A stretch of DNA of 64,000 nucleotides from Escherichia coli (GCF_050920415.1 NZ_CP169309.1); one strand, 5' to 3'; shown: positions 28,464 to 28,582, counted from the first letter of the stretch. Translations and numbers: made by a program. Notes: generated by a model from the letters alone, not told the origin.

Positions 28464-28476
28464 TTTTTAATCCTGT

Positions 28477-28505
28477 TGACGTATCAAATATTGGATCGTA
28501 GTATC
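28477..28505 (+). promoter_or_regulatory. Candidate early lytic promoter (pR-like): -35 TTGACG, 17-nt spacer, -10 TAGTAT
   Basis: Near-consensus sigma70 hexamers with 17-bp spacing in the cI-apl intergenic region, oriented toward apl. Confidence 0.55.
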
Positions 28506-28524
28506 TTGGTGTATCAAATATTGA
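28482..28524. promoter_or_regulatory. Two direct 13-bp repeats GTATCAAATATTG (candidate repressor operators)
   Basis: Copies at 28482-28494 and 28512-28524, one overlapping the -35/spacer and one just past the -10 of the candidate pR. Confidence 0.5.
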
Positions 28525-28582
28525 ATCAAATAAAACAAGATAAAACGACGTAAACCAAACCTTAATCGAGAGATACTGCACT

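Follow-up and report, generated by a model that had tools for sequence, protein, structure and literature searches.

A probable 186-type lysis-lysogeny switch with two candidate palindromic CI operators in an ssrA-integrated Escherichia coli prophage

The window (the whole 64,000-nucleotide stretch of Escherichia coli DNA that was analysed) contains a prophage of the 186/Fels-2 type of ~35.9 kb (25105-61071) integrated in ssrA; its ends are formed by a 46-bp direct repeat (25105-25150 and 61026-61071) equal to the 3' end of this tmRNA gene, which itself occupies 61027-61389 on the minus strand. The gene ssrA has been reported as the integration gene for Fels-2 and SopEPhi too (PMC3448106), and the Fels-2/SopEPhi group (Felsduovirus, Salmonella P2-like prophages) has the same genome organisation as this prophage. 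The closest relative at the DNA level is Klebsiella phage Kp4845-2 (99.9% identity), followed at ~80% identity by the Salmonella phages SEN8 and SopEPhi and by Yersinia phage vB_YpM_MLG42 (MLG42 below), the last three carrying a 186-like annotation. Just within both prophage ends there are Int arm-type GCCGCCA repeats. Between attL and int there is a 506-aa ORF (25283-26803, minus strand) without a Pfam domain that matches only PHROG 14259 (function not assigned); SEN8, Fels-2 and 186 carry no such ORF at this position, and it is likely an accessory (moron) gene. A 160-aa ORF adjoining attR (60421-60903, minus strand) gives a weak BRCT-domain match; it strongly matches a PHROG that carries the label DNA ligase (E=2e-77), but is too short for a ligase.

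Within the prophage the integrase gene and cI read leftward, with int directly left of cI, and apl and cII (a PF06892 homologue) read rightward, an order that rests on ORFs, on Pfam and PHROG matches and on synteny with annotated relatives and with 186. The segment 28464-28582, for which a preliminary description had proposed a cI-apl switch region, is confirmed as the non-coding stretch between a 186-family cI and an apl/cox-type gene that is followed by cII: position 28464 is the first base past the cI start codon and 28582 the last ahead of the apl ATG, giving a gap of 119 nt with 31% GC. The coordinates of the features discussed here are collected in Table 1.

The cI product matches both 186 CI domains in Pfam over the curated cut-offs (PF07022, E=6e-31; PF16452, E=5e-28), the Pfam search giving nothing beyond these two and hence no S24 peptidase domain, and a phmmer search against the PDB matched the 186 CI structure 2FJR (E=3e-25) as well as 2FKD. 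At 30% identity to 186 CI overall, it consists of an N-terminal helix-turn-helix domain, a linker ~18 aa longer than that of 186 (a longer CI linker is also noted in PMC3448106) and a C-terminal oligomerisation domain. The apl product is 33% identical to 186 Apl. An RNA-level explanation of the switch region found no support, the leaders of apl (z=+0.24) and of cI (z=-1.17) folding no better than shuffled sequence.

Table 1. Features of the proposed switch and its surroundings (positions counted from the first letter of the window)
Feature	Position	Strand	Description	Basis
cI, immunity repressor gene	27831-28463	-	210 aa	PF07022 and PF16452; match to 186 CI structure
Candidate FL-like distal operator	28219-28229		TCAATGTTTGA, in cI linker codons (G-S-N-I-D), 265 bp from O1	
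Putative cI ribosome-binding site	28471-28474	-	AGGA, 7 nt before the ATG	Read from the sequence
pR, early lytic promoter	28476-28504	+	-35 TTGACG 28476-28481; 17-bp spacer; -10 TAGTAT 28499-28504	PWM scan; 186 alignment
O1, proposed CI operator	28484-28494		Core TCAA-ATA-TTGG, centre 28489, in pR spacer; extended conserved unit 28482-28497	
O2, proposed CI operator	28514-28524		Core TCAA-ATA-TTGA, centre 28519, over pR start; extended unit 28512-28527	
Phased hexamers	28531-28556	+	TAAAAC (28531), TAAAAC (28541), TAAACC (28551), phased by 10 bp	
pL, lysogenic promoter	28573-28601	-	-35 TTGAAA 28601-28596; 17 bp; -10 CAGTAT 28578-28573	Homology
apl, first lytic-operon gene	28583-28831	+	82 aa, Cox-like excisionase and repressor	PHROG 6912/575, E=4e-32 / 4e-24
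Candidate FR-like palindrome	28832-28847		GTTCAATTATGAGAAC, at apl stop	Positional homologue of annotated 186 FR ATTCACTTTATGTGAAT
Probable CII half-sites	28864-28890		ATGTTTG (28864-70) and CAAACAT (28884-90), inverted, at cII start	Position of annotated 186 CII region

The pR-pL switch of coliphage 186, with its regulators CI, Apl and CII, is the work of Dodd, Egan, Shearwin and co-workers, and the GenBank annotation of that phage was used here as the reference; it places the cI ATG at 23011, the -35 and -10 of pR at 23026-31 and 23049-54, three CI sites within 23011-67, seven Apl sites within 23056-123, the -10 and -35 of pL at 23131-36 and 23154-59 and the apl ATG at 23141, and also supplies FL, FR, pE and the CII sites. 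The near-consensus promoter TTGACG-17-TAGTAT, described earlier as directed at apl, is present as stated, matching at nine of twelve positions, and in our own position-weight scan it is the top-scoring sigma-70-like site on both strands of the whole 64-kb window. Its hexamers fall on the mapped -35 and -10 of 186 pR in an alignment of nine sequences, the distance from the cI ATG to the -35 being 13 bp in the window and 15 bp in 186, and transcription is predicted to start at ~28511-28513. For a comparative footprint we assembled 80 viral contigs with CI of at least 90% identity, together with SEN8, SopEPhi and MLG42, which yielded 44 distinct switches without indels; among these the pR -10 shows no minor allele in any of its 6 columns, and the -35 is nearly invariant.

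The pR spacer also contains GATC (28494-28497), just 5' of the -10 and overlapping the right arm of O1. Four or five immunity classes that otherwise differ have this tetranucleotide at the corresponding place in the spacer, 186 does not, and it is missing in only two of the 44 variants of the window's own class. The prophage encodes a D12-class (Dam-type) adenine methylase at 30351-31268 (PF02086, E=1e-76), and it is conceivable that methylation modulates pR or the binding of CI.

The preliminary description further reported 13-bp direct repeats overlapping the -35 and lying downstream of the -10. The sequence GTATCAAATATTG is indeed found in two exact copies, at 28481-28493 and 28511-28523, and nowhere else in the 64-kb window; the overlap, however, has to be corrected, as the first copy shares just the last base of the -35 and otherwise fills the spacer, whilst the second spans the predicted pR start, 7-19 bp past the -10. 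The repeat can be extended to 22 nt at 19/22 identity, with a start-to-start distance of 30 bp, and an exact direct repeat of at least 13 nt arose in only 2 of 20,000 dinucleotide-preserving shuffles of this 119-nt stretch (P ~1e-4).

Each of these direct repeats itself reads as a small palindrome with the core TCAA-N3-TTG(A/G), as would be expected of the site of a dimeric helix-turn-helix protein and unlike P2-style direct-repeat half-sites. The footprint bears this out. In O1 the eight half-site columns (TCAA, 28484-87; TTGG, 28491-94) hold one minor allele and the single central base (28489) seven; in O2 the eight half-site columns (TCAA, 28514-17; TTGA, 28521-24) again hold one, the three columns of the centre 22, and the stretches to the left (28505-28513, nine columns) and to the right (28528-28530, three columns) 32 each, counts that overstate the evidence because the 44 related sequences are not independent. 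Lying on either side of O2 and taking in the predicted pR start, the two flanking stretches are the most variable of the switch; the version found in the window, CTTGGTGTA, is a minority one, most relatives having CTCGATGTA. Half-sites that are nearly fixed around an unconstrained centre argue for a palindromic core in each repeat, the signature of a dimeric helix-turn-helix site. O1 and the O2 core (TCAA-N3-TTGA) differ at one of the eight half-site positions, and the dyad axis of O1 is ambiguous: it may be odd, with its centre at 28489, or even, falling between 28489 and 28490; given that O1 lies in the promoter spacer, its conservation could also partly reflect promoter needs. Its position is that of the central 186 pR operator, ATCTCTCAATTGGGAGAT, which occupies the same promoter spacer, and of perfect palindromes in other immunity classes.

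A second line of comparative evidence comes from the inheritance of the spacer. All of the 84 loci with the N-terminus of the window CI share the same spacer/operator sequence and the 119-nt gap, and all of the 70 Fels-2-type loci have another spacer. The same apl alleles are found with both operator classes, the operator never tracking the apl allele, and the right part of the cI-apl gap is common to all immunity classes. As the spacer sequence thus follows the type of cI and not apl, the O1-O2 segment goes with cI in inheritance, which is what an immunity determinant is expected to do. SopEPhi, SEN8 and MLG42, which have a near-identical CI N-terminal domain and the same O1, probably share their immunity class with the window, O2 being kept in SEN8 and MLG42 and differing at one core base in SopEPhi. 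Taken together, the way in which the repeats are conserved and the fact that they are strictly co-inherited with the cI N-terminal domain support the suggestion that the repeats are immunity operators: the GTATCAAATATTG pair very probably represents repressor-binding sites on the lytic promoter, and these operators appear to be specific to the immunity class common to the window, SopEPhi, SEN8 and MLG42.

Other readings of the repeats were weighed against this one. We consider it improbable that the repressor reads 13-22-nt units as head-to-tail direct repeats, in the manner of the C repressors of P2, WPhi and P2 Hy dis. The units do stand in direct orientation and share an asymmetry (TATCAA on the left, TTG(G/A)ATC on the right), the right flank of O2 (AATC) is invariant whereas its left flank is variable, and operators of the P2 family are direct repeats that flank or overlap the early promoter (PMC1904268; PMC1904263). 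However, the window CI falls in the 186 CI families and not in the P2 C family, the conserved columns form a symmetric TCAA/TTGA pair about a variable 3-bp centre, palindromes, some of them perfect, stand at the same position in other classes of this protein family, and an in-phase Apl hexamer position can explain the asymmetric, invariant flank of O2.

A role of the repeats as binding sites of the host factor IHF, bending the DNA of the switch, in place of operators is very unlikely. The IHF consensus is WATCAANNNNTTR, from which each of the units TATCAAATATTGG and TATCAAATATTGA deviates at a single specified position, in a region that is AT-rich; IHF, moreover, acts at P2/186-type att sites. 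Against this, the conserved right half is one base off register (TTG following N3, in place of TT following N4), the motif shows a palindromic pattern, and unrelated sequences replace it in phages of the same host that have another cI N-terminal domain; a motif that changes with the cI class and not with the host is not what is expected of a host-factor site. There is similarly little to commend the view that the second copy is a non-functional duplication remnant or part of a second promoter, with the spacer copy alone, or neither, binding CI: the 22-nt unit does present a -35-like TTGGTG in its second copy, and Fels-2-type switches are without an obvious second copy of the spacer sequence, but TTGGTG is not conserved (TCGATG in the majority of relatives), the O2 core is nearly invariant amid the most variable columns of the region, and another class (L161-L169) has a dyad at the same +30 position.

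Taking the repeats as palindromic CI operators, we searched for further sites of the same kind. Nothing core-like that could provide a third pR operator was found at +/-20 or +/-30 bp from O1 and O2. The stretch 28456-28473 over the cI start was rejected in this role: it shares GTATC but off register, it consists of coding and ribosome-binding-site sequence, and its neighbouring columns vary. GTATC itself was also rejected as the recognised unit, variants of O2 reading GCATC, TGTTC or GATTC. The core also has weak matches within cI, at 28087-99 and close to 27892; they lie in conserved coding sequence, the first of them missing in SopEPhi, and are not distinguishable from chance.

Candidates for distal sites occupy the positions of FL and FR in 186. 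The exact core TCAANNNTTGA occurs twice in the 64-kb window, in O2 and at 28219-29, where 1.6 occurrences are expected by chance per 64 kb. The copy at 28219-29 is kept in SEN8, MLG42 and SopEPhi, and in most of 28 variants it persists despite changes of the encoded residues (S/P/A, N/K, I/V, D/E), its centre base varying; 186 FL sits at a comparable place, in cI ~300 bp from pR. The palindrome at the apl stop contains, on the minus strand, the likely -10 (CATAAT) of pE, the CII-activated promoter. Since it is found in all immunity classes and holds the pE -10, it is neither class-specific nor diagnostic, and 28832-28890 as a whole is likely the CII-activated pE promoter region, conserved across all immunity classes.

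The preliminary description had also pointed to the convergent pR/pL interference of 186-type switches, and a pL can be placed by homology to 186: ATACTG (28573-78) and TTTCAA (28596-601) of the window align with the -10 and -35 of 186 pL (TTGCGA-17-CATGAT). It reaches past 28582, the right boundary given for the region in the preliminary description, the -35 falling in apl, within codons 5-7. The hexamers are weak, and the -35 is also constrained by apl coding; the PWM score of 6.3 is modest, being third best in a scan of 28380-28700, and is that of the best leftward candidate with a start upstream of the cI ATG. A non-coding 16-mer, GAGATACTGCACTATG, which is kept in all immunity classes, comprises both the -10 of pL and the ribosome-binding site of apl. 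The predicted start at ~28567 converges on pR, the two starts lying ~55 bp apart, compared with 62 bp in 186 and within the 40-60 bp of the convergent promoters of P2-like phages (PMC7498355). The minus-strand sequence TTGATA-17-AATGAT (28487-28459) was considered as an alternative pL and rejected: it is the reverse of the left half of O1, and its start would lie inside cI codons 3-4, leaving it unable to express CI.

Between the two promoters, the phased TAAAAC/TAAACC hexamers are invariant across the 44 switches, with varying bases in between, and they are present in all immunity classes, the Apl proteins of which are 71-96% identical to that of the window. The Apl operators of 186 are 6-bp direct repeats 10-11 bp apart, situated between pR and pL and at att (PMC7498355), and the phased TAAAAC hexamers between pR and pL are, judged by sequence, probable Apl operators. 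On the minus strand at attL (25203-25228), the hexamers TAAAAC, AAACAC and TAATAC, likewise 10-bp-phased, are found with the att core on one side and two Int arm-type GCCGCCA repeats on the other; resembling the TAAAAC set of the switch, they are probably Apl (excisionase) sites.

Elsewhere in the prophage a perfect LexA box, CTGTAAATATAAACAG (33775-90), overlaps a promoter-like TTTACA-17-TATATA and is followed by a 62-aa ORF (33834-34022), which a 101-aa ORF (33961-34266) in a different frame overlaps. This second ORF contains a DinI domain and shows 41% identity to the C-terminal half of 186 Tum; the N-terminal part shows no detectable similarity to Tum, and the division into two ORFs may reflect a frameshift or an antirepressor of another design. 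The segment 33740-34266, which holds this SOS-type module, is conserved in 56 phage records.

The resemblance to 186 extends over most of the switch. Both phages have homologous CI (in both domains), Apl and CII and the same gene order; matching elements in the window are a proposed operator within the spacer of pR, a predicted weak pL that faces pR (186 pL is described as a weak promoter; PMC3675496) with its -35 in apl, phased hexamers between the two promoters, a palindrome where apl ends (the FR position), a candidate site in cI (the FL position) and a putative LexA-controlled Tum-like module. They differ in the operators. 186 has three at pR, two helical turns (~20 bp) apart and of two sequence types, whereas the window has two proposed ones of one type at 30 bp, and the sequence TCAA-N3-TTGA stands against ATCTC..GAGAT and ATTCAC-N5-GTGAAT in 186. 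186 CI assembles as a seven-dimer wheel, which wraps operator DNA, and the window CI, by its sequence, shares homology with it in the C-terminal domain. The Pe-Pc switch of P2 is similar in having face-to-face promoters, a repressor gene that is first in the lysogenic operon, repeated operators near the early promoter and, in Cox, an excisionase that doubles as a second repressor, like Apl (PMC7498355; PMC3448106); unlike the window, P2 uses a small C repressor of unrelated length on true direct repeats, and is without cII and SOS induction.

Comparison with other immunity classes bears on the 30-bp spacing and on the basis of operator specificity. Fels-2 CI is 59% identical to that of the window in its C-terminal domain and goes with another pR spacer, yet its predicted recognition helix, SKSTMANRYLR, is identical, suggesting that specificity may reside outside that helix. 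The pR spacer of the Fels-2-type loci (L004, L090-L158) reads (T/C)ATATAAAAAGTGATC, with no clear second copy; a 7/8 match to the window core, TCATGGTTTGA, just past the -10 is ambiguous, its left half being variable in 57 variants and its position 5 bp off register. Perfect palindromes in the pR spacer are found in Cartapus (ATCTTGAATCAAGAT) and in L166/L167/L169 (ATCACTTAAAGTGAT). In the L161-L169 class a palindrome stands at index 14 from the start of the -35 in all nine switches (perfect in three, with one mismatch in the rest), and a second dyad, TCCC-N5-GGGA, at index 44, exactly 30 bp downstream, in seven of nine; these differing dyads at pR recall the two operator types of 186. No distal sites were found in this class with its own motif. 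In the 110 nt upstream of apl, which hold these dyads, the same class (recognition helix SKSTMANRNLR) also has a third pR element in the form of a hybrid site, TCCCGAAAAGTGA, at +44.

An arrangement at indices 14 and 44 is thus present in two immunity classes with unrelated operators, i.e. that of the window and L161-L169. That the long-linker CI proteins of the Fels-2/SopEPhi group employ a switch geometry unlike that of 186, with two operators three helical turns (30 bp) apart, one in the pR spacer and the other over the start, in place of three at two-turn spacing, is a tentative proposal that we consider rather unlikely. Such a three-turn geometry would imply a different path of the DNA on the CI oligomer, which the longer linker could allow; according to Wang et al. 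(2013; PMC3675496) three-turn spacing needs the DNA-binding domains to lie ~3.9 nm further from the centre of the wheel, and the same authors describe a 32-bp operator pair at the pB site of 186. The cI-apl gap of Salmonella phage BIS20 (L171) contains the direct repeat CAT(T/C)(G/A)ATGATAAT, with copies 30 bp apart, the first of which overlaps the predicted pR -10; the BIS20 CI has a short linker and 62% identity to 186 CI, and this combination of a short linker with a 30-bp repeat weakens the link between linker length and spacing.

On these grounds 28464-28582 is likely to act as a bistable switch between lysis and lysogeny in a prophage of the 186/Fels-2 type (Peduoviridae), in which CI dimers would act on two palindromic operators at pR. 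The analysis shows the features of the sequence, their homology to 186, the pattern of conservation and the linkage to cI; from these we infer that CI binds, and does so as an oligomer (wheel), where transcription starts, and that the promoters interfere. In the mechanism that we propose, the strong rightward pR would drive apl, cII and the early lytic genes, and CI dimers on O1 and O2 would shut it off, O1 lying between the -35 and the -10 such that bound CI would exclude RNA polymerase, and O2 lying over the start, 30 bp downstream. The weak leftward pL would transcribe across O2, O1 and pR into cI. An active pR would interfere with pL, and by silencing pR, CI would indirectly activate its own synthesis, as in 186. 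Apl made from pR would probably bind the phased TAAAAC hexamers between the promoters, and the LexA-controlled Tum-like module elsewhere in the prophage would probably supply the antirepressor for induction.

The switch is of an ordinary, well-understood kind; what is new is the particular operator sequences, and no new kind of mechanism is proposed. In the searchable literature we found no published operator analysis for the window/SopEPhi or the Fels-2 class; Nilsson et al. (2011) alone touches on the immunity class of the window, and calls the CI immunity classes little studied. The results provide a testable layout of the immunity switch for widespread ssrA-integrating prophages of Klebsiella, Salmonella, Escherichia and Yersinia, a group to which SopEPhi, the carrier of a Salmonella virulence factor, also belongs. 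The 30-bp site pair, the longer linker and the occurrence of one recognition helix with different operators offer natural variants for the "CI wheel" model of 186, and the operator core and the boundaries of the immunity classes help to predict superinfection immunity and prophage inducibility.
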